This document shows, piece after piece, positions 5,996-38,314 of a DNA stretch of 64,000 bases (positions are counted from its first letter, which is position 1; each line of letters begins with the position of its first letter). Under the pieces are notes generated by a model. That model had not been told where the DNA came from, did not search any database, and was given only the letters and a program-made list of their open reading frames with translations. This DNA comes from a virus. A program made the translations under genes and the position numbers. Location: the IMG/VR virus record IMGVR_UViG_3300037264_000690, positions 30,414 through 94,413 of that record; one strand, given 5' to 3'.

Positions 5996-6043
5996 TTGCG
6001 TTTCAAGCACAGCGCATTTTCTTTAAGCATCAGGGGGTTGGTA

Positions 6044-7246
6044 GTGTCAACGATGATGAAGATGTTTCAGGATGTCATGATATGTCTCGATCAACAGCTA
6101 AATGTGCTGCTGGTCAGTGCCCCAGGTATGGGCAAGAGTTCATTCACGAAATGGATGGCTAATGAACTGAATGTCTTGCATATCGATATCAATCTCTCGC
6201 AGAATGAGGGTATTGACGTTCACGGAGCTCGAATCATTGCCCGTGAACCAAAGACGATTAATGGGAAGCAATGCACGGTTACAGTGCAAGCCCCACCTGA
6301 TTACGCCATTGACGCTACAGACTCCAATCGTGGCGCATTGATCAACTTCGAGGAGTTGACCTGCATCCCGCCGGCTGAAGCTGGTCCAACACTGGGCATC
6401 TTCTCGGATTACATCATCGGAGGCATCCGTCTCGACAAGGAGAGGATTGGCATCACGGCGTGCTGTAATCCGCCGGAGATGTCCGCTGGTGGTTGGAAGC
6501 TTAGTCTACCCACGATTAACCGATTCGTGCGGCTCAACTTCGATCAAGACGTGACGGAGTGGGCAGAGAATTTCATCACTTACTGGGACAATCCACCAGT
6601 TATCAAGAGATGGAATCGTGAAACTTCTGAGTCCGAGTGGTCGCGTGATCGTGCAGTCGTCGCCTCGTTTGCCAGGCAGTTTCCTGACTTGGTGAACAAA
6701 CCACCCGAAGCTGGCTCCGCTGATGAATCCTTCTGCACATTCCGCTCGCTTGACTTTGCCAGTCGTATCAAGACAGGCTGTCGGCTGCGCAATGCAACCG
6801 AGGATGTGCGACAGAGGCTATGGGCTGGTGCGTTAGGAGGTGCCACCGCTAAACAGTTGTGGGAGTACCTCAACCATTTCGATCTTCCTTCTCCATCGGA
6901 GATCATTGATAATCCGGGGAACTTCGACATGACGATCGTCCCCTCGGACAAGATGTTCTACCTAATCATGGCCTGTGTCGCTGAGATCATGAATCGCAAG
7001 CGGCAGGGCGATGCCAAGAAGAAGGACATGAAGTTCCACAGCTACGTCATCAAGTCGTGGCAGAGTATGTGGGATATTCTGCTGCTGGTACTCAAGAGTC
7101 GTGGCCCAAAAGACATTGTGGCTGCAGCAGCTCGGCGGATTGCCGATCCAGCAAACTACCCGAAAGGTGCTGAGCCACCCACGGCGATTGAAGATATCGT
7201 TAAGGTGGTGCGGGCATCTGGCGTTGATTGGAGAAGGAAGGCATGA
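6044..7246 (+). CDS. MoxR-like AAA+ ATPase
   Basis: Walker A SAPGMGKS, Walker B-like INFEE, sensor ACCNPP, LSLPTINRF arginine finger; start placed at GTG after GGGGG. Confidence 0.85.
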   Translation: MSTMMKMFQDVMICLDQQLNVLLVSAPGMGKSSFTKWMANELNVLHIDINLSQNEGIDVHGARIIAREPKTINGKQCTVTVQAPPDYAIDATDSNRGALINFEELTCIPPAEAGPTLGIFSDYIIGGIRLDKERIGITACCNPPEMSAGGWKLSLPTINRFVRLNFDQDVTEWAENFITYWDNPPVIKRWNRETSESEWSRDRAVVASFARQFPDLVNKPPEAGSADESFCTFRSLDFASRIKTGCRLRNATEDVRQRLWAGALGGATAKQLWEYLNHFDLPSPSEIIDNPGNFDMTIVPSDKMFYLIMACVAEIMNRKRQGDAKKKDMKFHSYVIKSWQSMWDILLLVLKSRGPKDIVAAAARRIADPANYPKGAEPPTAIEDIVKVVRASGVDWRRKA

Positions 7247-26112: not shown

Positions 26113-28971
26113 ATGACTGTAACCATGCCCGGATCTCTACGTAACCGACTTCGGTCTGGTGATTTCAATTTCAGTACCACTGGCACTTCCCCCGGTTGGT
26201 GGCTGAAGTCTGCGTCCTACTGGCGCGATGTATGTCGATATCATCGCTTCAAGCATGGTGAGGTCAAGACTGCCGAGCTCGGTGGCGGCCAGGACACTCC
26301 GTTCGAGCAGGCATTCTCCAACCTGGCCCACGCCTATCTCAAGGATAAGGCTCCGAAACTGCTCGACTATGAAGTTGGCTTCCAACTGTTGGAAAAGAAT
26401 CAGGAGAACACCAAGTCAGTCGGCGTGTTTGGCTTCAAGGTCGGCAGCCAGTGGATCTATTGCCCAGTGCTATTCCTCAATGGCGACTTGAAGGGCCATG
26501 AGCTCATGTACATCAAGTCGCAGGACATGTTCGTCCCGTTGAAGGAAGAATGGATCGATTACATCTTGGGTAAGAAGCCGGCCATCCTCGGCGAGGGTGT
26601 CAACCGTAACCTCAGCCTCATGGGTGTTATGCCGCCCAACCTTTACCAGCTCAGTCGCTCCCCACAGAAATTCGCTGCCGATCAATCTAGTGGCAAGATC
26701 GTACCCACGACGAACACCGAACCTGACCTTCCGATCACAACGCCAGCCGGCTGCCCGAAGATGGCTAGTTGGGCTCGTGAGTTCATGCCAACTCTGGGTT
26801 ACTTAACAACCACGCCAGTTGATTACACTGGCATCAAGGGCGTCCCCGATTTGCTCAAGGAGGCCGGCGAGACTCTCTTCCGCTTCGTTACTGATCAGAT
26901 CGGCGTGAAGTACCCAACCGTCTTCGCTGACATCGACCGCTTCTATGGTCATGAAATGTTGACTGATGTGGCACAGCACATCTATGCTCAGAAGAAGGCT
27001 GCTGCTAGCAAGAGCCTCGTCAAGAATTCCGCCACTATGGCGTTTGGCGACAAGCCGCCGAAGGACTGGAACGGCACTATGCAGCGGCCATCCAAGAAGA
27101 ACGGTGGCGTGCGTTCCGATGGTGAGGAAGCCTGGGATCTGTCTCAAGTCGGCCGCCGTCGGACTGGTGCCCACGTTGGGCACCTGGGCGATAGTGCCAA
27201 GATGGCTAACTATCCCGGCTGTGGCGGCCCGAAGGGTCCAGCATCGATGAAGTGCGAAAAGTGCGGCATGATCAACTGCAAGTGCCCGCACATGAAGAAG
27301 AAGGCATCGATCATCCCGTCGGAGATTGGCCCAACTGAGGCACTACCGGAAGGCATCAAGCATAAGGTCATCAGCAAGGAGACGGTCAAGCTCGATCCAC
27401 AGCTCGTCCACGGTATGTCGTCCGATGAACGGCAGACCCTGCTCAAGGAGCGGGTGGTCTTCAAGGATCATCGTGAGGACAAGGACGTCACGATTGCGTA
27501 CAACGTCCAGACTCCGCTGCGGATGCAGAACCCCGATCACACTGGCCTCTACTACGTCTTGGTCAAGCCAGACAAGTTCGAGAAGTGCCTGGTGATCTAC
27601 CACCCGTACAACGCCGAGCAGCGGCTGGGCCTCTGCACTGTTGTCCGTTTGGACGGCGAGAAGAACTACGTCAACACCCACCCGGCCAATGTTTGGCACC
27701 GGGGCGAGGTTGACAACGACACCTGGAAGAAGTGGCTCGACAAGGAGAAGACCTGCGAGTCGGTGCCGCTGCAGCGCCGCACCAAGAAGTACGGCGATTA
27801 TGATTATGATGACAAGCGGGTCTTTCTACTCCTTGGACCGAACGGCGAGGGTACAGCCCCGTTCAAGGCCAGAGAGGAGTACACCGGTGGCGATGACGAG
27901 CAAGTTGTCTATGACGTGCGGTTCGAGGATCATGAGTGGTCTAGTCGGCCAGCTTACCTGCCCGATCATGGTCGTGGCATGAAGAATTACGCCGATCCGT
28001 GCTGTTTGAACGCGGACGGTGAGCACCTAACATTGACCAAGCGCCCCGGCGTCAAGATCACCGTGAAGTCGGGCTACCTCATGGTCCCAGACCAGTTCAA
28101 GATTATTCAGTGCCGGGACGAGGATGCCTCCGAGAAGACTCGTAACAAGCCGCTGCAACTTGGTACACTTGTTGACGTTCAGACCAAGATCATGAGCTAC
28201 ACCGAGCCGCTGCGGGTGGTCTCCGATGGTAAGGATGTCACGGTTGAAGAGAACCGCATGGACAAACTGTCGGCCGTCATGCATCTCTTTTACGATTACG
28301 GTCTCCGCAAGGAAGCAGCCGAAGAGATCGTCGACCGTGCGCTCAAACATGGAAAGTGCGAGCCACGGTTGGTCTACTCGAATTACATCAAGGCTTGCTG
28401 GTCACTCACCGAGAAGCAAGCTGCTGACTCAGGCAATGACATGATCCGTGGTGCGCCAAACGCCCCGCCGTTCCCAGAGCCATACACTGGCTATGACCCA
28501 CTGACTGGTGGCAACGTTCCGACCATGCAGGAGTCTCAGTTCAACATCCCGATTCAGGACATGTCGGCCTCGAAGACAGATCGTTCGATCTACCATCCGT
28601 TCGGCCCGGACCCGAAGGCCATGCAGGTTGCACAGGATGCCAGCCGCACCGGGCAGAAGGAAGTCTTCGATACCGCCATGCTGGGCAGTCTGCTCAAGGT
28701 GCTTCGCCAGGACAACATGGTTGATCGCTACATGGGCGACCTGATGAAGGGTATGGATCGACTGGGCCGCATCCTATTCCTCTACTACTGGCATGGTGAG
28801 GAGTTTGAGGATCGCTATGGCAAGCAGGATATGCCTGAGCTGGAAGACGGCCTTCGCAATGCCTTTGAGGGTATCGGCGATATCGTCTTAGTCCTCAAGC
28901 GTAAGGCCATCGAGCCACAGATGTCGGACGATACTGGTAAGGTGGACCTTGGCCCAATTGCCAATCAGTAA
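26113..28971 (+). CDS. large head-associated protein (KxA-rich)
   Basis: 952 aa; first gene of the structural block; about a dozen KxA motifs; CEKC..CKC. Confidence 0.7.
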   Translation: MTVTMPGSLRNRLRSGDFNFSTTGTSPGWWLKSASYWRDVCRYHRFKHGEVKTAELGGGQDTPFEQAFSNLAHAYLKDKAPKLLDYEVGFQLLEKNQENTKSVGVFGFKVGSQWIYCPVLFLNGDLKGHELMYIKSQDMFVPLKEEWIDYILGKKPAILGEGVNRNLSLMGVMPPNLYQLSRSPQKFAADQSSGKIVPTTNTEPDLPITTPAGCPKMASWAREFMPTLGYLTTTPVDYTGIKGVPDLLKEAGETLFRFVTDQIGVKYPTVFADIDRFYGHEMLTDVAQHIYAQKKAAASKSLVKNSATMAFGDKPPKDWNGTMQRPSKKNGGVRSDGEEAWDLSQVGRRRTGAHVGHLGDSAKMANYPGCGGPKGPASMKCEKCGMINCKCPHMKKKASIIPSEIGPTEALPEGIKHKVISKETVKLDPQLVHGMSSDERQTLLKERVVFKDHREDKDVTIAYNVQTPLRMQNPDHTGLYYVLVKPDKFEKCLVIYHPYNAEQRLGLCTVVRLDGEKNYVNTHPANVWHRGEVDNDTWKKWLDKEKTCESVPLQRRTKKYGDYDYDDKRVFLLLGPNGEGTAPFKAREEYTGGDDEQVVYDVRFEDHEWSSRPAYLPDHGRGMKNYADPCCLNADGEHLTLTKRPGVKITVKSGYLMVPDQFKIIQCRDEDASEKTRNKPLQLGTLVDVQTKIMSYTEPLRVVSDGKDVTVEENRMDKLSAVMHLFYDYGLRKEAAEEIVDRALKHGKCEPRLVYSNYIKACWSLTEKQAADSGNDMIRGAPNAPPFPEPYTGYDPLTGGNVPTMQESQFNIPIQDMSASKTDRSIYHPFGPDPKAMQVAQDASRTGQKEVFDTAMLGSLLKVLRQDNMVDRYMGDLMKGMDRLGRILFLYYWHGEEFEDRYGKQDMPELEDGLRNAFEGIGDIVLVLKRKAIEPQMSDDTGKVDLGPIANQ

Positions 28972-28983
28972 CAGGAGATAGTC

Positions 28984-29454
28984 ATGCCTCGGGTCTACAC
29001 TCGAATCTTTTCTGATGAAGCATTTGCGGCTCGACTACCATCTAGTCAGCCTGCCGTGGTTATTGGTGGCACCAAGAAGCGGATTGTGCGCATGAAGATG
29101 GGCTCGGAAGGCCGACTCACTGAACTGACCGTCAAGCAGTTGGAGTCGGAAGCTCAGGTGGCGTTCACGATCGAGGTTCTCAAGTCAAAGATTCCGTTCC
29201 CAGTCGTCGACGCTGATATCGGTGTGGCTGTTGTTCCTGTAGACACCATTAGCCTTTATCGTGTTATATTGCCCATCGTTGGTGTAGCCGGCTCACCAAT
29301 CCAGCTCGACGAACAACATGGATTTGCCTACAAGAACATGGATGGTGGTTGGACAGAGAATCAGCAATTCCTCTATCTGTTGATTGAGCCCACAGCGGCA
29401 GTAGCGACGACATGGAAAGTCTCCATGACCGTCGAACGTGACATCGGTAAGTGA
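28984..29454 (+). CDS. putative virion protein
   Basis: AGGAG RBS; beta-rich. Confidence 0.6.
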   Translation: MPRVYTRIFSDEAFAARLPSSQPAVVIGGTKKRIVRMKMGSEGRLTELTVKQLESEAQVAFTIEVLKSKIPFPVVDADIGVAVVPVDTISLYRVILPIVGVAGSPIQLDEQHGFAYKNMDGGWTENQQFLYLLIEPTAAVATTWKVSMTVERDIGK

Positions 29455-29470
29455 GTATTTTTTTACTGCT

Positions 29471-30412
29471 ATGATTCCATCTAAAGATGATCCACTGAGG
29501 CCACCCGACTGGCGGTGGCTACGAGCAAACTGGCTTAGGTCCACTGGCAAGTACGCGAAGAAAAGCCGTGAGGACGCTGAGACAATGCTCATCAAGCGCT
29601 ACCTCTCAGCGAAGGCATTATGCCATAACGAGCTGCAACTGGAGCGGTTGATGTATAAGATGCCAGGTCTGTATCACGCGGAGCAGTTACACGACCGCGA
29701 GGATTTGGATCTGCGGTGGGAAATGGAGGCACGATTCCTGGCACGTGAATCGTTCGAGTCCATTGGCGGTAAGATTGGCATCGATGTTGAGGTAGTGTTC
29801 TGGTACGAGCGAGCCTTCTATAACGTGCTTGAGAAGCTCAACAACCAGAGCTACATTGGCAACGTGGCCATGGGTCGTTCAGTTCATCGTGGACTCTTTG
29901 AGCGTGACTATGACTTGCTGTGGAAAATGTTCGGCTATGCTTGCGGCCCACTGATGATTGACAGTCTCACCCGCAAGCTAACGAATCCACAACAGGTTGA
30001 TGCAGCAGATCAAGTTGACGTAGCCAAGCATGCGCTAACGAGCTCTGCTTTAGTCGATAAGGCTTTAACTGCAGCAATGACGATCCCGGTAAGTTACAAT
30101 CAATCTATCATCCTAGAGTTCTATCATAAGATGTTGGAGATTCAGCGGAACTCAGGTAAGGGCGGCGACATCATCGCGATGATTACTAATAACATCAATT
30201 CGGCGTTAACAGCTTTGCCTTTCTCAGCTGAGCGTTCAACAGTTACTGCACCACAACTGTCGTATTACGATGATCAGAGTGCCGAACTACGAGCAGACGA
30301 GGTGCTTGCAGTCGATTTGGGGTTCGACTCACCGGCTCTTCGAGATGCCGTAAAGGTTACCTTCCCGGGGGCCAAGGATGGCAACAATGCAGCGAATCAG
30401 CAAGGAAACTGA
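29471..30412 (+). CDS. hypothetical protein (head module)
   Basis: long ORF in the tightly packed operon; start uncertain. Confidence 0.65.
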   Translation: MIPSKDDPLRPPDWRWLRANWLRSTGKYAKKSREDAETMLIKRYLSAKALCHNELQLERLMYKMPGLYHAEQLHDREDLDLRWEMEARFLARESFESIGGKIGIDVEVVFWYERAFYNVLEKLNNQSYIGNVAMGRSVHRGLFERDYDLLWKMFGYACGPLMIDSLTRKLTNPQQVDAADQVDVAKHALTSSALVDKALTAAMTIPVSYNQSIILEFYHKMLEIQRNSGKGGDIIAMITNNINSALTALPFSAERSTVTAPQLSYYDDQSAELRADEVLAVDLGFDSPALRDAVKVTFPGAKDGNNAANQQGN

Positions 30413-31748
30413 GACGAAGCTCGTACGTTCGCTGGAGAAGGTGGCTAACCTTGTCCAGGATGGCGAGACGCCTAGTGACGCTATCGTCAAAGTGGCTCAA
30501 GGTGATGATCTGCCCATTGGGCATGTGCAGTTGATGGTTCAGGCGTATAACAACGCCCGGTTCAATCAACAGCGCAAGTCATCCAGCCTACTTGCCGAGA
30601 AGACAGCTCACTTTACATTGGCGAACCCGAAGGACATCTACGAGCAGCTTTGGCCAAGCAACGTTAAGGAAGCGCATGTCAAGCTGATGCGCAACCACAA
30701 CGAGATTGCTGATGATTACAGTCGGCCACCAGAGAACATCACACCAGATCGCTTCTCGATGCCACATTTCACCAAGGTGGCTAAGGCACTGTCTGCTAGC
30801 GGTAAGTCGTTGCCTCGTGAATCGGACTATCACATGAAGAAGGCGCATAGCTTACTCAAAGAGCTTGATGTTGAGCATGCAGAGAAGCGTCGCCTCATGA
30901 ACGCAGCGCGTGACAAAGTTGCTGAGTCCTTCGATGACTTGAACGATTATTTCAAGGGCAACTATCACTTGCCGTTCACAGCGGTAAAGGAAGCTGCCGT
31001 TTTACTGTATGGACCAGAAGCCGATCCGATCTTTGCTCATCTAGCTGATGTATCGCCGCGTCTGCTCAAGGATAGTGTTGGTCACTACAAGTGCGCTGTC
31101 GATCGTACCCAGCCGCCCTATACTCTGATCGAAAAGTGCTTAACCAATGTCAGCGACTACTTGCACCGCTTCAATGATCTTGGTAAGTTCAGCAAGCAAG
31201 CCGGGGCCGCGACTGCTGACTTGATGGAGCAGTTTATGCCGCTGCAACGCATCCCAATCAGGGGCTCGCTGCTGCAGCATCGAGGCGTTGAGAAGTGTGC
31301 TGATAACTTAGGCATGCTGACTGGTCCCATTGGTCAGATCGGTCAGACGGTTATGGGACACGCGCTAGCCTCGCAGTTGATGAAGGGTACCGAACCAAAG
31401 GAACCGGAGAAGATGGAGCGGAAGTCGCTCATCAGTCTCATGGACCCTGCTCACGAGCAGAGACTGAGAGGTGTCCGCGCTCAGGCTACCTTTCACGACC
31501 TAATGGCTAATGATGAGTATCTCCAAGGTGCTGATCCAACTCATGCCACCAAGTTGTACAACGAGATTTCTCGGGTGTCACCGCGTGCGGTTGACCAACC
31601 ACTGTTGATGCGTGCCCTGCTTCGTCGATACCTGGCACAGGGTCAAGTTGACCCGAGCGAAGTTCAGCAGCTTGCTGATATTGAAGGTAAACTCAAGGAC
31701 CGTGAAGCTCCACAAGAGCAGCATCCGCTCTTTGCTAAGCAGGAGTAA
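30378..31748 (+). CDS. KxA-rich head protein
   Basis: 11 KxA in the first ~310 aa, none in the C-terminal part. Confidence 0.65.
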   Translation: MATMQRISKETETKLVRSLEKVANLVQDGETPSDAIVKVAQGDDLPIGHVQLMVQAYNNARFNQQRKSSSLLAEKTAHFTLANPKDIYEQLWPSNVKEAHVKLMRNHNEIADDYSRPPENITPDRFSMPHFTKVAKALSASGKSLPRESDYHMKKAHSLLKELDVEHAEKRRLMNAARDKVAESFDDLNDYFKGNYHLPFTAVKEAAVLLYGPEADPIFAHLADVSPRLLKDSVGHYKCAVDRTQPPYTLIEKCLTNVSDYLHRFNDLGKFSKQAGAATADLMEQFMPLQRIPIRGSLLQHRGVEKCADNLGMLTGPIGQIGQTVMGHALASQLMKGTEPKEPEKMERKSLISLMDPAHEQRLRGVRAQATFHDLMANDEYLQGADPTHATKLYNEISRVSPRAVDQPLLMRALLRRYLAQGQVDPSEVQQLADIEGKLKDREAPQEQHPLFAKQE

Positions 31749-31753
31749 TCGAC

Positions 31754-33208
31754 ATGATGATTAAGTCGATTCTTAGTTCGTCATATGACTTTGGCGAGCC
31801 GCCCCTGCAGCTCGTCAAGTCTGGTGCGAATGGGCTACGTGGCGAAGACTTCCGTTCATTTGTTAAGCGGGCTGGTTTCGCAATGGCGGATGTTGCTCGT
31901 AAGGTCGAATTGCACCCAGGCGAAGAGCTGATTCATGGTATTGCTCTGGGCACAACCGAACACTATGGTCCGAACCGAAACGGCGATGGCTTCAAGGAAG
32001 CGGCCTGCCGGCTCTACCATCCCACATTCGTAAAGTACGCTCGGTGGTATCGCCATCACGCCAACAAGGACACCAAGAAGTCCTATGGCATCATCAAGTA
32101 CAGCCACTTCAACGACGACATGAAGCGCATCGAGCTCTTAGCGGCACTAAATCGCACGAAGGAAGCAGCCGAACGTAACGGCGGCCTGGTCGCCGACGAA
32201 GAGCTCGAAGCCCTACACGACGGCAAGGACGTGCCAACCAGTATGGCCTGCAAGGTTGCTTATGACGTGTGTGCTGGTTGCGGTCATAAGGCTAAGAACC
32301 GCACTGAATACTGCACTGGCAACGATGAAGGTGGCATGTGCAAGCGGGGCGGTGTGAAGAATCGGATGGGCTTCGTCCATGACGATGGCTTCATGAACCA
32401 CGTTGATAATCCACACCCGCACTTCTTCGATTGGTCGAAGGTGTATCGTGGTGCGGACCGGACGAGTTTCGCTGACGGCATCCTCAAGGCTGCCGCCACT
32501 GGTGGCGTTGTCATCGGTGGTGCTGAGCTGGCCGAGAAGATGGGAGTGCAGCTGCCCGACATCATCATGGACGTGCCAGCTGTTAACCTGTGGCCAACCC
32601 GACTTGAAAAGCTGGCTACCAAGCTGGCCGCCATCGAACAGAAGTTCGATCGTGGCGGTTACCAGCAGTACGACCTGGCCCTTTCGCCTGAGTTCGAGAA
32701 GGAAGCTGAGCTGGATGTCCTTCCGAGCGGGCCAACTCATCTTCAGCTCGCCGCGTTGGCAATGCAGAAGATCGCTCTGCCGGTTGAATCGTGGTTCAAG
32801 CTGGTCCATGGCGACTCGTGCAAATGGGCGAGCGCTGATATGATCCGTGATGGGCTTCCGGGTATCTACGGCCGTATGCTGGCCGATGGGTACATCAAGG
32901 AGGCAAGCGGATCATTGCCTTCGATTGGCGGCATGATTCCACACTCCCACTGTAAGTGGGCTTATGACCTGGCACCAGAACTTTCACTTGATCGCTCGCA
33001 CCTTGATATCCGCGTGAAGCGAGCAGCCATTCGTGGCTACTCTGTTCCTGACGTTCGCCGTGCACCGTTGGTGAAGTCAGCTGGTGCAGCCGAGACCCTG
33101 GCTCGTGGGTACGCGCTGTACAAGTTGGCCTTTCTCCAGGCACTTGAAGGTCGAGATACGGATTTCGATTTGACATGTACCATGGTGACACGGCAGAATT
33201 ACATTTGA
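31754..33208 (+). CDS. putative prohead maturation protease
   Basis: NRNGDGF, TF....YRHH.N, SMACKV.YDVC..CG (candidate catalytic His/Ser); lies upstream of scaffold and capsid genes. Confidence 0.65.
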   Translation: MMIKSILSSSYDFGEPPLQLVKSGANGLRGEDFRSFVKRAGFAMADVARKVELHPGEELIHGIALGTTEHYGPNRNGDGFKEAACRLYHPTFVKYARWYRHHANKDTKKSYGIIKYSHFNDDMKRIELLAALNRTKEAAERNGGLVADEELEALHDGKDVPTSMACKVAYDVCAGCGHKAKNRTEYCTGNDEGGMCKRGGVKNRMGFVHDDGFMNHVDNPHPHFFDWSKVYRGADRTSFADGILKAAATGGVVIGGAELAEKMGVQLPDIIMDVPAVNLWPTRLEKLATKLAAIEQKFDRGGYQQYDLALSPEFEKEAELDVLPSGPTHLQLAALAMQKIALPVESWFKLVHGDSCKWASADMIRDGLPGIYGRMLADGYIKEASGSLPSIGGMIPHSHCKWAYDLAPELSLDRSHLDIRVKRAAIRGYSVPDVRRAPLVKSAGAAETLARGYALYKLAFLQALEGRDTDFDLTCTMVTRQNYI

Positions 33209-33253
33209 TCTATCGGCAACCATGCCGTAACGAGCCAAAGGAGTGGCTTAGCA

Positions 33254-34513
33254 ATGCCTACTACGATTCCTCAGAACTCGGTAATCGGTCGTATCAGCTC
33301 GCTGATCGAAGAGATCAACGGCGTGAAGACCGCTGCTGACAAGGGTCACACCAAGAAGGGGACCGAGTTGGACCTGAGCGGTTCTGCCAAGCAGGACCCA
33401 GGTGGTTACAAGGGCAAGTCGGACCACCCAAGCGCTCGTGCTGCATCGAATGTCCAGAAGACTCCGCTTGGCTCTCGGGCCAAGGAGAATGAGACAGACG
33501 TCAAGCACGACCATCCCGGTGCCGGTGTGGATAACACCAGCGGCAGTGGTGGCGACCAGGATTCCAAGCAACTCAACATCGGCACGCATCAGTCTGCTAC
33601 CGGTGAAGACCCCAAGGTTGAAGACGACTTCAAGGGCACCAAGGAGGACGGGCGTGATGGTGACCGTGGTGGCACATCGCACCCGGCAAGCGCCGAAGAT
33701 ATTGGCGGAAAATACGCCTCGGCCAAGTTTGCTGACTTGACCAAGGTGGCTTACGCCAAGATGAATGAACTACTGGCGGATGTGGCCAATGGCTCAGCCC
33801 CAGTCAGTGCTCCGATCAAGACGGCATCGGTTAGCCAGAACGTGTCACAGGCTTCAGATGTCGAGAAGCAGGCTGCTGCTCAGGCAATTATCGAGCAGAC
33901 CATCATCGATGCTCGCGTCAACGCCGACCTCGTTGGTGAGTTCCTCACCAAGTACAGCGAGAAGTATGCACACCTCTTGAAGGGTGCCGCCACTGACGGC
34001 CCAATGGGTGGCGCAATGGATGGCGAAGGCGGCGATGTTGGTGGTGGTCCACCCCCAGAGATGGGTAGCGGCGCGCCGCCGGAAATGGGTGGCGGTCCTG
34101 AAGAGGGTGGTGGCGCTGAGGGTGGGCTTGACGAAATGATCAATGCCCTGCTTCAGATGGGCATGACCCCAGAGGACATTGAAGCGGCCCTACAAGCCCA
34201 CATGAACGGCGGCGGTGAAGGTGGCGCACCTGGCGGTGCACCGCCTCCGGAAGCTGCCATGGCCGGTGCTGGTGGCCCACCAATGGGTGGCGGTGATATG
34301 GGCGGTGGCGGTGATATGGGCAAGATGGGCTCAGCTCGTCGGCGTGGTCTGAACGAGGATCAGCTCATCATGTTCAAGGCTGCAAACATGGCTTCGTACC
34401 GGTTCCGCACCGGCAAGTGGCAGCCTCGCACTGTTCAGCCAGGCACCAAGGAAGCTCAGGAGCGCACTGAACTGCAGCGCTACATCCTAGAGGTTTGCGG
34501 CTTCAACCGTTAA
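33254..34513 (+). CDS. putative scaffolding protein
   Basis: disordered, Gly/Pro/Met tracts, 10 KxA; between protease and capsid. Confidence 0.55.
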   Translation: MPTTIPQNSVIGRISSLIEEINGVKTAADKGHTKKGTELDLSGSAKQDPGGYKGKSDHPSARAASNVQKTPLGSRAKENETDVKHDHPGAGVDNTSGSGGDQDSKQLNIGTHQSATGEDPKVEDDFKGTKEDGRDGDRGGTSHPASAEDIGGKYASAKFADLTKVAYAKMNELLADVANGSAPVSAPIKTASVSQNVSQASDVEKQAAAQAIIEQTIIDARVNADLVGEFLTKYSEKYAHLLKGAATDGPMGGAMDGEGGDVGGGPPPEMGSGAPPEMGGGPEEGGGAEGGLDEMINALLQMGMTPEDIEAALQAHMNGGGEGGAPGGAPPPEAAMAGAGGPPMGGGDMGGGGDMGKMGSARRRGLNEDQLIMFKAANMASYRFRTGKWQPRTVQPGTKEAQERTELQRYILEVCGFNR

Positions 34514-34526
34514 GAAGGAGACAAGC

Positions 34527-34955
34527 ATGAACTTTCCAGAACGAGTCGTTGAGACTCTTCAAATCTCGGCGCTGGCATTGCAGAAAGCCGAGAAGGAAGC
34601 CAACGAGAAGACGTCCGCCGAACAGCGCTACACGAACAAGATTGCCAGTGCAGTTGAGAAGTGCGTGAAGTGTGGGCGTATCGATGACACCACCGATGAA
34701 CGTGAGAAGCTGGCTGCTTGGCTGATAACGCCAGAAGGTGCGCTAGAAGTCATCGAGAAGCTAGCCGAGCACGAGATCGATCCACCGATCGCTGCAGGTC
34801 TCGGCAAGCAGGTCGACGCACAAGGTCGATCCACAAGCAATGGTCATACCAAGAAGGCGTCCTATGACAGCCTGAATGATCCATACGTTGGTCGTCGTAC
34901 CGGTCAGGAGCCTGAGTCCTGGCGTCGACTGACAACTGGCCTGGGAATCGCGTAA
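34527..34955 (+). CDS. small helical scaffold-like protein (KxA)
   Basis: AGGAG RBS; 5 KxA. Confidence 0.6.
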   Translation: MNFPERVVETLQISALALQKAEKEANEKTSAEQRYTNKIASAVEKCVKCGRIDDTTDEREKLAAWLITPEGALEVIEKLAEHEIDPPIAAGLGKQVDAQGRSTSNGHTKKASYDSLNDPYVGRRTGQEPESWRRLTTGLGIA

Positions 34956-34996
34956 TTGCTACAATCCGGTAGTATAAAATACCACTGGAGTTAGCA

Positions 34997-35182
34997 ATGG
35001 GTTGGTGTAACAACGAAAAACGTAGGGAACATGTTAGGCAACAGTTGCAAAACGGTGTTTGTCCAACTTGTTGTCGCAACAAAACAGAAGGCTTTAGTAG
35101 ATGTGCTGCTTGCAGACAGAAACATAATGAAGTCAGTAAGCAGACGCATTGGAAGTTGAAACAAAAGGTCTTTGGTCACTAG
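34997..35182 (+). pseudogene. truncated zinc-finger HNH endonuclease remnant
   Basis: CPTC..RCAAC..KLKQKVFGH* matches the N-terminus of 19149 (KLKNEVFAAYGG); stops at the YGG position with no HNH core. Confidence 0.6.
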
Positions 35183-35257
35183 GACTTACTGAAGAAAGTG
35201 GTTGAGATAGGGTTGGATGAATACTAGCCCTAACTCCTTTACGACACGGAGGTTATC

Positions 35258-35803
35258 ATGCCATTGCCAGGCCAGATGTTTGATCACATGCTGAACCCAG
35301 CCAAGGGCTGGCCACACATGGCTGCCCTTGACTTCCAGGCTCGGCAATCCGCCAACGTCCAGTATCGGCTACGTGCCGGACAGGTCGGCCACGTCAATCT
35401 GGCCGGCGAGCTGGAGCCTGGCGTGCAGTTGACGCAAATGGGTCTGTTCCTCTTCCAGGGCGCTGATGACCTGGACGTGAACAACCAGGGCAACGACCAG
35501 TGGACTCCGGTTAGCCCGTCCGGCCGGATCATGTGCCTCGTGGCCGGCGGTGACTATGAGCTGGAGACCACTGAGTTCATCGCCTCACTGACATTCCAGC
35601 CAAACAACATGCTTCGTTCACCGGTCGGTAATGCGGTGGGCGACGAGTTCCTTTCCGGGATGTTGCGCAACGATGCGCTCGGCACGTTGTACTCGGCTGA
35701 CACGGAAGCTATCGTTGGTGTGGTCAGTCGTGGTACGTTCAATAACGCCTACGGTCGGCGAGTCCTGGCCTTCTGGCCACGTTGGCTGCCAGGTCGCGTG
35801 TAA
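35258..35803 (+). CDS. putative capsid decoration/cement protein
   Basis: GGAGG RBS; immediately upstream of the capsid gene; beta-rich. Confidence 0.55.
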   Translation: MPLPGQMFDHMLNPAKGWPHMAALDFQARQSANVQYRLRAGQVGHVNLAGELEPGVQLTQMGLFLFQGADDLDVNNQGNDQWTPVSPSGRIMCLVAGGDYELETTEFIASLTFQPNNMLRSPVGNAVGDEFLSGMLRNDALGTLYSADTEAIVGVVSRGTFNNAYGRRVLAFWPRWLPGRV

Positions 35804-35862
35804 TCTGAGTCAGACCAGGAGTTTCATTCCTACGGTCAAAACGGCACATGGAGGTGCTTAAA

Positions 35863-36789
35863 ATGGCGACTCCCGCTGAAGCCAGGATGGTGAACGAAGC
35901 TCTCTTTGAGCAGCTTGGCACTCCTGGTCTGGAGAAGCGTGCGATTGATGCGGTGAACGACTTCACGCGAACCAAGATGCGTGAAGACGGCTTCTACCGC
36001 CGTATCATTCCGCCGCTGCAGATCACCAATGACGAGCTCGATCGGCAGGTCGACACCGACAAGCCGGTCAAGGTCGTGGACAAGGAACCGGACAGCCCGG
36101 CTGCTATCAGCCTGCCGTTCGCCAACTTGCCCATCAACATCTACATCAAGGGTCCACGCTACCGGGTCCTGTTCGATCGCGTCGTCACACCTCGGTTCAC
36201 CAAGGATGTTGACGAACTGCGAACCTGGATCATGGACATTCGTCAGGTGCTGTCTGACAACAGCATCAAGGACATACTGGCCGAAGAGGACACCAAGTTC
36301 CTCACCGCCGTCAACACGGCGCTTGTCGGTCAGGACGTCATTCTGCCAACATCTGGTGTGGCTCAGTTCGTCGGTATTGGCGGTGGCATCACCCGCGAAA
36401 CGATGCAGGACGCCTTCAAGGTTATGCCACGGACTCCAAGCCACCTCGAAGTCCACACGGTCCTTATCAACAACATCACCATTCGTGAAGTGATGAAGTG
36501 GGATCGTGATGAGATGGGTGGTGACTTCAGCCAGGATCTCGTCAGGAACGGTTGGTCCGAGCAGGAGTTCATGAACGCCCGCTGGATCATCACGATCAAG
36601 CGGGACCTGGTTCCGGATGATCACATCTACATGTTCAGCGACCCGAAGTTCATCGGCAAGTCGTATCTTTTGGAAGACACGACGATGTACATCAAGCGGG
36701 AAGCCTACCTGCTTGAGTTCTTTGCCTACGAGACCATTGGCGGCGCGCTGGGTCATTATAATGGGTTGAGTCACGTGGTCTTTGAGTAA
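35863..36789 (+). CDS. major capsid protein (HK97-like fold, inferred)
   Basis: GGAGGT RBS, strong codon bias, position after protease/scaffold/decoration; single KxA at residues 25-27. Confidence 0.75.
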   Translation: MATPAEARMVNEALFEQLGTPGLEKRAIDAVNDFTRTKMREDGFYRRIIPPLQITNDELDRQVDTDKPVKVVDKEPDSPAAISLPFANLPINIYIKGPRYRVLFDRVVTPRFTKDVDELRTWIMDIRQVLSDNSIKDILAEEDTKFLTAVNTALVGQDVILPTSGVAQFVGIGGGITRETMQDAFKVMPRTPSHLEVHTVLINNITIREVMKWDRDEMGGDFSQDLVRNGWSEQEFMNARWIITIKRDLVPDDHIYMFSDPKFIGKSYLLEDTTMYIKREAYLLEFFAYETIGGALGHYNGLSHVVFE

Positions 36790-36796
36790 AAGTCCA

Positions 36797-36852
36797 TTGT
36801 AGTGTCCAACGTTGTTTGGTATGATAGCCCCTAGATTAATCAATCTAGGAGG
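36797..36852 (+). promoter_or_regulatory. promoter plus RBS-sequestering hairpin for the HNH gene
   Basis: TTGTAG-17bp-TATGAT (TG-extended); CCTAGATT-aatc-AATCTAGG overlaps AGGAGG. Confidence 0.6.
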
Positions 36853-36857
36853 TTATC

Positions 36858-37481
36858 ATGACCAAGAAAGAACTGCGTGACACCAGACGTGATGCTGGAT
36901 TGTGTATTGACTGCAATACACCATCAACGGCTTTAAGGTGTCCTGAACACACCACGAGAAACAAAAAGCAGCTTGCGAGCTTCTACACAAGGAAAAAGGA
37001 AAGACGCGAGTGTATTATTCCTGGGTGCAAGAAACGTGTGCTTGATAAAGCTGTCAGATGCGTAGTACACACCCAGGAACGAAAGGATGCTTACGCCAAG
37101 AAGGTTGCTCAAGGAGTATGTACCAAATGTCCATCGGCAGCAACGTGCGGCAACAAGTGCAATAAGCACGCAATAATGCAACAAGCACTCAACTGGCGAC
37201 GTAAGCAAATGATCATGGATCACTATGGTGGTCCGACTTGTGTAGGATGTAATGAGACAGAACTCGCAGTTCTACAACTTGACCACAAGGACGGAGGAGG
37301 CAACAAGCATCGAAGGAAGATAGGTAATGGTGATCTGCGGAAAGGTAGTGTCAACACTTACCAGTGGATCATCGAAAACAACTATCCGCCTCTCTTCCGG
37401 GTGCTTTGTGCTAACTGCAACGTTAGAGCTAGATGTAGACTGCAGTTTCCTCGTGAACGCGGAAAGCTCAAGGACGAGTGA
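36858..37481 (+). CDS. HNH endonuclease with repeated Cys/His zinc knuckles
   Basis: three CxxC..C..H units, then HYGG.TC..C....LQLDH..GG..HR...FRVLCANCN. Confidence 0.8.
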   Translation: MTKKELRDTRRDAGLCIDCNTPSTALRCPEHTTRNKKQLASFYTRKKERRECIIPGCKKRVLDKAVRCVVHTQERKDAYAKKVAQGVCTKCPSAATCGNKCNKHAIMQQALNWRRKQMIMDHYGGPTCVGCNETELAVLQLDHKDGGGNKHRRKIGNGDLRKGSVNTYQWIIENNYPPLFRVLCANCNVRARCRLQFPRERGKLKDE

Positions 37482-37894
37482 GTATGCCGTTAAGCAAGAC
37501 GACCTACGAAGATCGGAAGGCAAAAGGACTTTGCGTGCAGTGCGGCGAATCGACAGGTGGTATCATTGGAGCAGTAAGCAACGGCAAGGTTCGTTGCGAC
37601 GCGTGTCTCCGAGGCAACAAATTGGCCCGACGGAAACGTCGGGCTGATCGTAAGAAGACGGGTCTCTGCACTGAGTGCCCGAACAATGCAATGCCTGACT
37701 GCTCGCTCTGTGACAAATGTAGTGCTGTTAGGTCCAAGTCATCAACCAAACGTTACTACAAGAATAAGCAAGCGGGAGTGTGTCGGTTCTGCGGGGCTGA
37801 AACTGAAAACGGTGAGTCCCGTTGTCCAAAGCACAAAGAACAGCTAAGCAACTGGCGAGAACGACAGAGACAGCTGAAAATCCAAGAAGATTGA
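37478..37894 (+). CDS. zinc-knuckle repeat protein without nuclease domain
   Basis: three GxCxxC...C..(C/H) repeats; Lys/Arg-rich. Confidence 0.7.
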   Translation: MSMPLSKTTYEDRKAKGLCVQCGESTGGIIGAVSNGKVRCDACLRGNKLARRKRRADRKKTGLCTECPNNAMPDCSLCDKCSAVRSKSSTKRYYKNKQAGVCRFCGAETENGESRCPKHKEQLSNWRERQRQLKIQED

Positions 37895-37918
37895 CATCAG
37901 ATAAAGGAAGGAACTGCA

Positions 37919-38314
37919 ATGCCGAATGAAATCCAGTTTCCTGGCGAATCTGTGGAGATTATGGCTGGCGGCCTCCACGATCCGTTCTTCTTCGACAAGC
38001 TCGCCTCTGCTTGGAACGTCGTCCCTCGGACGCAGTCTGAGCGAGAACAGCTACTTGAGTTAGCCACCATGCTTCGCGAAGCCCGCGACACTGAGACCGT
38101 GAAGCAAGCCGGCGACGGCAACCAGTTCCTGTCCGGCGCCATTGACAGCCTAAAGGTTGCCATGAGCGCCCACGGCTACGACACCGCACCTACCTCTGAG
38201 CTGATTGGAATCAAGAACGCTGCCGCTCAGATCGCAACTGACCCGCAGTTCCAGAAGGCTGCCCTTGACTATGGTATGTACCTGATCAACCTGGAGGCCG
38301 GCAACGGCAAGTAA
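37919..38314 (+). CDS. small KxA-rich head protein
   Basis: 5 of its 6 lysines lie in KxA. Confidence 0.65.
   Translation: MPNEIQFPGESVEIMAGGLHDPFFFDKLASAWNVVPRTQSEREQLLELATMLREARDTETVKQAGDGNQFLSGAIDSLKVAMSAHGYDTAPTSELIGIKNAAAQIATDPQFQKAALDYGMYLINLEAGNGK

Follow-up and report, generated by a model that had tools for sequence, protein, structure and literature searches.

The head gene module of a phage was analysed in a 64,000-nucleotide stretch of DNA (IMG/VR virus record IMGVR_UViG_3300037264_000690, positions 30,414 to 94,413; hereafter the window), which constitutes the final 64 kb of a 94-kb record whose completeness is estimated at ~46%. The module is co-directional and extends from 26.1 to 38.3 kb of the window. 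Six of its open reading frames (ORFs), named here by their start positions (26113, 30378, 31754, 33254, 34527 and 37919), carry multiple copies of the pattern K-x-A (Lys, any residue, Ala), which an initial annotation of the same DNA had read as a recognition code for a maturation protease encoded by 31754. These six ORFs and the gene for the major capsid protein are as follows (aa, amino acids; SD, Shine-Dalgarno):

26113..28971, plus strand: large head-module protein, 952 aa, homolog of virion protein gp218 of Salmonella phage Arash; 12 K-x-A
30378..31748, plus strand: all-helical three-block protein, 456 aa, homolog of Arash gp220; 11 K-x-A in residues 21-308
31754..33208, plus strand: candidate prohead protease, 484 aa, with a gp21/assemblin-fold domain (residues ~16-240) and a helical C-terminal domain (residues 250-484); 16 K-x-A
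33254..34513, plus strand: scaffold-like protein, 419 aa, largely low-complexity (G/P/E/M-rich); 10 K-x-A
34527..34955, plus strand: small head-module protein, 142 aa; 5 K-x-A at a spacing of 15-31 residues
35863..36789, plus strand: major capsid protein, 308 aa from the SD-supported start; one K-x-A
37919..38314, plus strand: small protein, 131 aa; five of its six Lys residues lie within K-x-A

K-x-A was recounted in every long ORF of the window, and its frequency in each ORF was compared with composition-preserving shuffles of that ORF. The counts listed above agree exactly with those previously made by eye. Pooled over the six head ORFs, 59 copies were observed where 16.4 are expected (Poisson P = 4e-16), and each of the ORFs is enriched individually, with shuffle P values of 0.001 (26113), 1e-4 (30378), <5e-5 (31754), 4e-4 (33254), 0.002 (34527) and 1.5e-4 (37919). 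When all 1600 residue-pair patterns (gaps of 0-3) were scored by pooled Poisson P, K-x-A took rank 1/1600 in the six ORFs, leading the second pattern (P ~2e-4) by twelve orders of magnitude. The predicted enrichment over shuffled controls is thus both strong and specific to K-x-A. The remaining 57 window ORFs contain 60 copies versus 68.9 expected, and outside the six carriers no window ORF attained a shuffle P below 0.03; the ORFs around the RNA polymerase are not significantly enriched (ORF 19149, 4 versus 1.4 expected, P = 0.03; the others, P >0.2). Tail proteins, in which few copies had been noticed, indeed show a shortage, the tail-side ORFs holding 15 versus ~24 expected.

In none of the six ortholog families do the related spacings KA, KxxA and AxK, or RxA, deviate from expectation, and a general Lys/Ala helical bias therefore fails to explain the excess. 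At the nucleotide level, the counts of AARNNNGCN by frame are 59/10/0 on the coding strand and 2/6/2 on the reverse strand, and each of the four Ala codons is represented. The K-x-A signal is consequently a protein-level and not a DNA-level one, this frame specificity and codon diversity ruling out a nucleotide motif or methylation site as its source. As a positive control, the identical scan was applied to gp68, gp21 and gp22 of phage T4, where it returned as its top two patterns IxE and LxE, the experimentally established motif of the T4 protease gp21. LxE, IxE and AxE are absent among the enriched patterns of the six ORFs, whose enriched motif ends in Ala and so departs from a rule of Glu at the P1 position.

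The proposed reader of the motif, 31754, was modelled with AlphaFold2 on 101 homologs (predicted local distance difference test (pLDDT) score, 87), and the assemblin-type protease fold suspected in the initial annotation was found. Residues 16-240 of the model align with T4 gp21 (5jbl_B) at a Z-score of 11.4 and a root-mean-square deviation of 3.1 Å over 141 of 164 residues, and with herpesvirus proteases at Z-scores of 5.4-8.0; the Foldseek probability against 5jbl was 0.95-0.99. Furthermore, 97 matches to 31754 were obtained in BFVD at E <= 0.001, including gp19 of phage G and annotated prohead proteases, together with a weak match to PHROG 18299 ('head maturation protease', E 0.0064). No Pfam family match was found for 31754, its 101 homologs gave no match to a protease family (Peptidase_S77, S21 and S78 included) at E <= 1, alignment of the 31754 family profile against T4 gp21 by hhalign produced no alignment, and a profile search of PDB sequences with the family yielded no protease match. 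As these sequence searches fail, the relationship between 31754 and gp21 is visible by structure only.

Four positions within 31754 are central to its interpretation:

31865..31873, plus strand: K38-R-A40, candidate N-terminal self-processing site; K and A invariant in 117/117 homologs
32057..32059, plus strand: codon of His102, candidate catalytic His; invariant in 101 homologs and aligned with a His in Arash gp222 and phage G gp19
32240..32242, plus strand: codon of Ser163, candidate catalytic Ser within an S-M-A-C motif; invariant in 101 homologs and aligned in Arash gp222 and phage G gp19
32486..32494, plus strand: K245-A-A247, candidate release site between the protease and C-terminal helical domains; K in 114/117 and A in 116/117 homologs

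Judged from their invariance, His102 and Ser163 likely form the catalytic pair of 31754; their spacing is 61 residues, and that of the gp21 pair, His85/Ser140, is 55. Approximately 40 longer homologs (600-1300 aa; examples are P0012, P0061, P0114 and P0122-P0139) carry inteins (Cys...His-Asn/Cys), some of them two, at four insertion points: after Gly72, after His102, after Ser163-Met-Ala (Ala165, the commonest) and before Cys173. The 31754 of the window is intein-free. As elements that home to functionally critical motifs, the inteins at the His102 and Ser163 motifs support the active-site assignment. Just after Ser163 lies an invariant four-Cys cluster (C173, C176, C187 and C196; window 32270-32341), which recurs in Arash gp222 and phage G gp19 and is probably a zinc ribbon inserted in the protease domain; such a cluster is not known to us from T4 gp21.

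The K-x-A content of 31754 is itself a family trait, since normal-length homologs have a mean of 13.7-13.9 copies against 3.6 expected, and never fewer than 8. The K38 site is aligned across lineages, reading KRA in the window, KQA in Arash gp222 and KTA in phage G gp19. The junction site, located 10-13 residues past a conserved R-x-A-D, reads KAA in the window and KVA in both Arash and phage G, and in 31754 it falls within a variable, low-pLDDT linker (residues 237-255) that joins the two domains. In a joint alignment at ~27% identity, K-x-A therefore flanks the protease domain on both sides in all three lineages.

A comparable partition is seen in 30378, which abuts the protease gene. Its motifs were described as confined to the first ~310 aa, and this is the case: the last occupies residues 306-308 of 456, none lies beyond, and the conserved C-terminal domain (residues 343-443) has zero K-x-A. 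Among 65 orthologs, the N-terminal 310 residues average 12.5 copies versus 3.7 expected and the C-terminal domain 0.05 versus 0.74, suggesting that the motif is enriched where the protein would be disposable and avoided where a part of it would have to survive. In this family, at ~29% identity, the (nearly) invariant columns are mostly the Lys and Ala of motifs (K38/A40, K75/A77, K133/A135 and K306), and these motif islands stand in gap-rich, otherwise unalignable stretches; mean conservation is 0.47 for motif Lys and 0.57 for motif Ala, compared with 0.21 and 0.25 for other Lys and Ala residues and 0.10 for the x position. The AlphaFold2 model of 30378 consists of three helical blocks separated by two disordered linkers (residues 107-148 and 285-342), with one conserved site in each linker. 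A BFVD search with this model returned only non-specific long-helix matches of the tape-measure type. The segment that follows K306-C-A308 (residues 306-340; window 31293-31400) is Gly-rich, hydrophobic and glycine-zipper-like.

The largest carrier, 26113, has ten of its motifs within residues 32-398 and two further ones at residues 733 and 768, one overlapping KKAA pair being counted among the twelve, and the N-terminal part of its orthologs averages 6.6 copies versus 2.7 expected. It is related to Arash gp218 by a profile match (E 4e-17); no Pfam, PHROG or usable ESM Atlas match was found for it. An assignment as portal protein was dropped, as the homolog of 26113 in Arash is gp218 and not the annotated portal gp204, and a tblastn search against phage records found nothing. 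With 952 aa, 26113 is ~150 residues longer than most of its relatives, and residues ~363-398 (window 27200-27300) form a Cys-rich knuckle (C-x11-C-x2-C-x4-C-x-C) directly before K396-K-A398.

The three smaller carriers show the same maintenance of the motif. ORF 33254 is situated between the protease and capsid genes, where a scaffold gene would be expected, and all of its 20 orthologs (100%) share the site at residue 25; its residues ~250-370 (window 34000-34360) constitute a long Gly/Pro/Glu/Met low-complexity tract. Each of the five sites of 34527 is found in 79-100% of 47 orthologs, while those of 37919 at residues 27 and 62 are found in 100% of 21 orthologs, overall retention of the sites of these two proteins being 76-100%. 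If cut at K-x-A, 34527 and 37919 would be reduced to pieces of 14-35 residues, those of 34527 measuring 25, 15, 23, 17, 31 and 31. Neither a Pfam nor a PHROG match was obtained for 26113, 30378, 33254, 34527 or 37919, and the terms 'scaffold' and 'cargo' are putative labels for these proteins.

The major capsid protein differs from these carriers in having a single site:

35935..35943, plus strand: K25-R-A27, candidate capsid propeptide cleavage site; K-x-A at that column in 74/74 relatives

The protein matches PHROG 2522 (major head protein), gp27 of phage G (PDB 6WKK, E 5e-5) and the Arash major capsid protein (gp226). Its start is at 35863 and not at 35848, as a GGAGG lies 7 nt upstream of 35863 and the orthologs begin at the same Met; a KMA at residues 5-7 of the longer ORF is upstream of this start. 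With translation beginning at 35863, the sole capsid K-x-A is K25-R-A27, and the single site at residues 25-27 that had been pointed out holds for the SD-supported protein. The x residue at this column varies among R, Q, T, N, E, K and A in the 74 proteins, and the Arash protein has K27-E-A29.

To assess conservation more broadly, 80 related loci taken from 150-230-kb viral contigs were compared with the window. K-x-A ranked 1/1600 in the matching head genes of all 80 loci (median P 7e-10), and the syntenic equivalents of the window carriers are enriched in these loci. The 31754 family comprises 3442 clusters at 50% identity (E <= 0.001), and hosts across it include Salmonella, Vibrio and Lysinibacillus/Bacillus, with further members from freshwater metagenomes. 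Among cultured phages, the orphan Salmonella phage Arash (OQ632216) is the closest relative, and its gp218, gp220 and gp222 are the counterparts of 26113, 30378 and 31754. K-x-A is the top pattern of the Arash head module (42 versus 18 expected), while the Arash genome overall is at expectation (247 versus 262); the top ORFs of a whole-genome scan (gp220, gp223 and gp222) all lie in the head module, albeit with modest P values per ORF (0.001-0.045). Phage G shows a similar tendency, with 8 K-x-A versus 2.5 expected in gp19 and 7 versus 2.8 in gp21. No K-x-A-enriched ORF was found in PaBG or RSL1, the proteases of which match 31754 at the fold level only, indicating that the code is not general to all such fold-related proteases.

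The sequence context of the motif was profiled over 3032 K-x-A sites pooled from orthologs. Phe, Leu or Met is preferred two residues before Lys (Phe 3.4-fold) and Glu, Val, Ile or Thr directly before it (Glu 3.4-fold), the x position excludes Gly, Pro and Asp, and Ala is followed by Ser (2.9-fold) or Ala (2.1-fold) and then by Asp or Ala. Such flanks look like the subsite profile of a protease. By analogy with T4 (L/I-x-E↓), phage SPN3US (A-x-E↓) and herpesviruses (V/L/I-x-A↓S), the motif would represent P3-P2-P1, with the cut placed after Ala. From the enrichment of the motif, its specificity and conservation, and the fold of 31754, we infer cleavage as its function, and consider it likely that 31754 cuts after Ala in Φ-[EVIT]-K-x-A↓[S/A], thereby shredding the scaffold-like proteins, cutting itself and trimming the capsid protein.

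On this reading, a 31754 zymogen would enter the prohead by means of its helical C-terminal domain and, inside the assembled prohead, free its catalytic domain at K38-R-A40 and at linker site K245-A-A247. The released enzyme, with an extended preference for hydrophobic-[E/V/I/T]-K-x-A↓[S/A]-[D/A], would then degrade to short peptides 33254, 34527 and 37919 as well as the first two thirds of 30378 and the N-terminal part of 26113, and finally shred itself. It would also remove 27 residues from the capsid protein. Motif-free folded domains, for example the C-terminal domain of 30378, would be released and remain in the head.

Several observations weigh against this interpretation. The capsid site has Ile, Leu or Val at P1', a class that is disfavoured at the other sites (0.3-fold), and the phage G capsid protein has no K-x-A. 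Motif Lys and Ala residues are significantly more conserved than other Lys and Ala residues only in the 30378 family; in the other carrier families the number of K-x-A is maintained while positions turn over. Approximately five of the 16 protease sites and six of the 11 sites of 30378 fall in predicted helices and not in loops, and the conserved K38, K94 and K136, being inside the folded protease domain, may be structural. Furthermore, a residue-level superposition of 31754 on the gp21 catalytic residues was not obtained, and the position of the scissile bond is taken by analogy. No cleavage product is documented, the Arash virion proteomics (PMC10585845) giving coverage figures and sequences but no peptide termini. 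A 2025 multi-omics paper on phage G (PMC12484599) is likewise silent on cleavage sites.

Four alternative explanations were considered. The first retains K-x-A as the recognition motif of 31754 but moves the bond, so that Lys would be P1 and Ala P2', or shifts it by one residue beyond Ala. The Lys-side flank is indeed the more strongly defined one, with its 3.4-fold excesses of Glu and of Phe; nevertheless, the preference for Ser and Ala right after the motif fits a P1' preference, and the known specificities of this fold, those of T4, phiKZ, SPN3US (PMC10052503) and the herpesviruses, read P3 and P1 and leave P2 free, which makes a displaced bond improbable.

Alternatively, K-x-A could be a docking or capsid-targeting motif, recognised by the capsid shell, the scaffold or the portal, and not a cleavage site. 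While this would agree with its restriction to proteins required to co-assemble in the prohead and with the location of several sites within helices, a docking motif would hardly be expected in 5-16 copies per protein with positional turnover, nor at sites that bracket the protease domain and occupy disordered linkers, and the domain that is presumably retained in the head avoids the motif. The capsid targeting sequence of T4, the one established tag of this kind known to us, is a single N-terminal tag. We accordingly regard a docking function as unlikely.

That the cleavage code is read by another enzyme, i.e. a host protease or a different phage peptidase, appears very unlikely: the motif travels with the 31754 family across phages of very different hosts, and no carrier is denser in it than the protease, whose catalytic domain has a conserved site at either end. 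ORF 5996-7246 of the window has a PHROG match to an ATPase family. Finally, a structural or compositional by-product, such as helix packing or capping in Lys-/Ala-rich scaffold-type proteins, is the least credible explanation, for although the carriers are largely helical or disordered and Ala-rich, the shuffles retain composition, KA, KxxA and AxK are at expectation, conserved islands occur in disordered, gap-rich linkers devoid of packing constraint, and the head proteins of PaBG and RSL1 show no such bias. None of these alternatives accounts at once for the multi-copy spread, the islands in linkers, the sites on both sides of the catalytic domain, the avoidance in the retained domain and the co-inheritance with the 31754 family, and cleavage after Ala by 31754 is the reading retained below.

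The surroundings of the carriers vary among relatives. Two Cys-rich ORFs (207 and 138 aa; window 36858-37894) separate the capsid gene from 37919 and have the appearance of a mobile endonuclease inserted into the head module, given that their homologs occur in only 3/80 and 1/80 related loci, respectively. In most related loci, the 30378 homolog and the protease gene are separated by an additional ORF of 320-515 aa (e.g. L004:8633-9982), which is not K-x-A-enriched and which is missing from the window. Moreover, 5 kb upstream of the window start (G000:C1:25397-26683; L084:598-1884), a 428-aa ORF contains 8 K-x-A versus 2.0 expected; it has only weak PHROG matches of unknown function and may be a further protease substrate encoded away from the head module.

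The conservation data raise the possibility, advanced here tentatively, that a huge and nearly all uncultured clade (150-230-kb phages with >3400 clusters of the protease at 50% identity, joined by Arash and, less closely, by phage G) shares a Lys-x-Ala code that is read by a divergent gp21-fold protease cutting after Ala, and that marks disposable scaffold as opposed to retained or ejected cargo. If so, mature virion proteomes and cargo modules would be predictable from sequence across thousands of metagenomic phages. K-x-A offers a sequence-only route to the annotation of otherwise unrecognisable head genes, and allows propeptides, scaffold remnants and retained internal proteins to be predicted in widespread large environmental phages.

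Motif-coded head maturation by a gp21-fold protease is already known, and what is new here is the proposed Lys-x-Ala specificity; a literature search for a K-x-A motif in connection with prohead, capsid or protease found nothing relevant. To our knowledge, the mapped specificities of the gp21-type fold in phages are of the cut-after-Glu kind only (T4, phiKZ and SPN3US), and Lys-x-Ala, if the proposed reading is true, would add a second class to the specificities of this fold in phages. Arash gp222 (36% identity) and phage G gp19 (27%), encoded in syntenic head modules, are true homologs of 31754. In GenBank, the former is annotated only as 'structural protein' and the latter has no product name; gp19 has been called a head maturation protease (PMC12484599), and no description of a cleavage motif was found in the literature for either protein.

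T4 gp21 (MEROPS clan SH, family S77) cleaves at (L/I)-x-E sites in gp22, gp67, gp68, gp23, gp24 and internal proteins. The window system resembles it in the fold of the protease (PDB 5JBL, Z 11.4), in a protease gene that precedes the scaffold and capsid genes within the head module, in the over-representation of a P3-x-P1 motif in core/scaffold proteins and the protease, and in a capsid protein with an N-terminal site, which in the window is a candidate one. It differs in that the motif is K-x-A and not L/I-x-E, so that P1 would be Ala instead of Glu and P3 basic instead of aliphatic, and in that 31754, at 484 aa, includes a helical C-terminal domain of 240 aa and a four-Cys insertion and has no sequence-level match to gp21.

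A further parallel is provided by gp175 of phiKZ and gp245 of SPN3US, gp21-like proteases that cut after A/S/G-x-E, process many head proteins, cut themselves and remove N-terminal propeptides, and to which 31754 may be likened. The SPN3US prohead protease has an A-x-E motif with Ser preferred at P1', and copies of the motif occur within propeptides (PMC10052503). The motif ascribed to 31754 would instead have Ala at P1 and Lys at P3, and the phage lineages are different. Similarly to phiKZ and SPN3US, both the window phage and Arash encode their own multisubunit RNA polymerase; packaging of the polymerase in the head has been reported for SPN3US only (PMC10052503), and abundant RNA polymerase subunits were detected in Arash particle preparations (PMC10585845).

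The inferred P1 residue finds its closest match outside the phages. Herpesvirus assemblin (herpes simplex virus UL26, human cytomegalovirus UL80a; MEROPS clan SH, family S21) cuts (V/L/I)-x-A↓S, and shares with 31754 a related fold, Ala as the putative P1 residue and, at the putative P1', a small residue (Ser/Ala), as well as the fusion of the protease domain to a scaffold-like C-terminal part through a linker that contains a conserved site. Unlike assemblin, however, 31754 would require Lys and not an aliphatic residue at P3 (RxA is not enriched), it belongs to a bacterial virus, and its structural similarity to the herpesvirus enzymes is far below that to gp21. Should cleavage after Lys-x-Ala be true, it would represent a phage counterpart of the herpesvirus cut-after-Ala rule and would thus bear on the shared ancestry of these enzymes.

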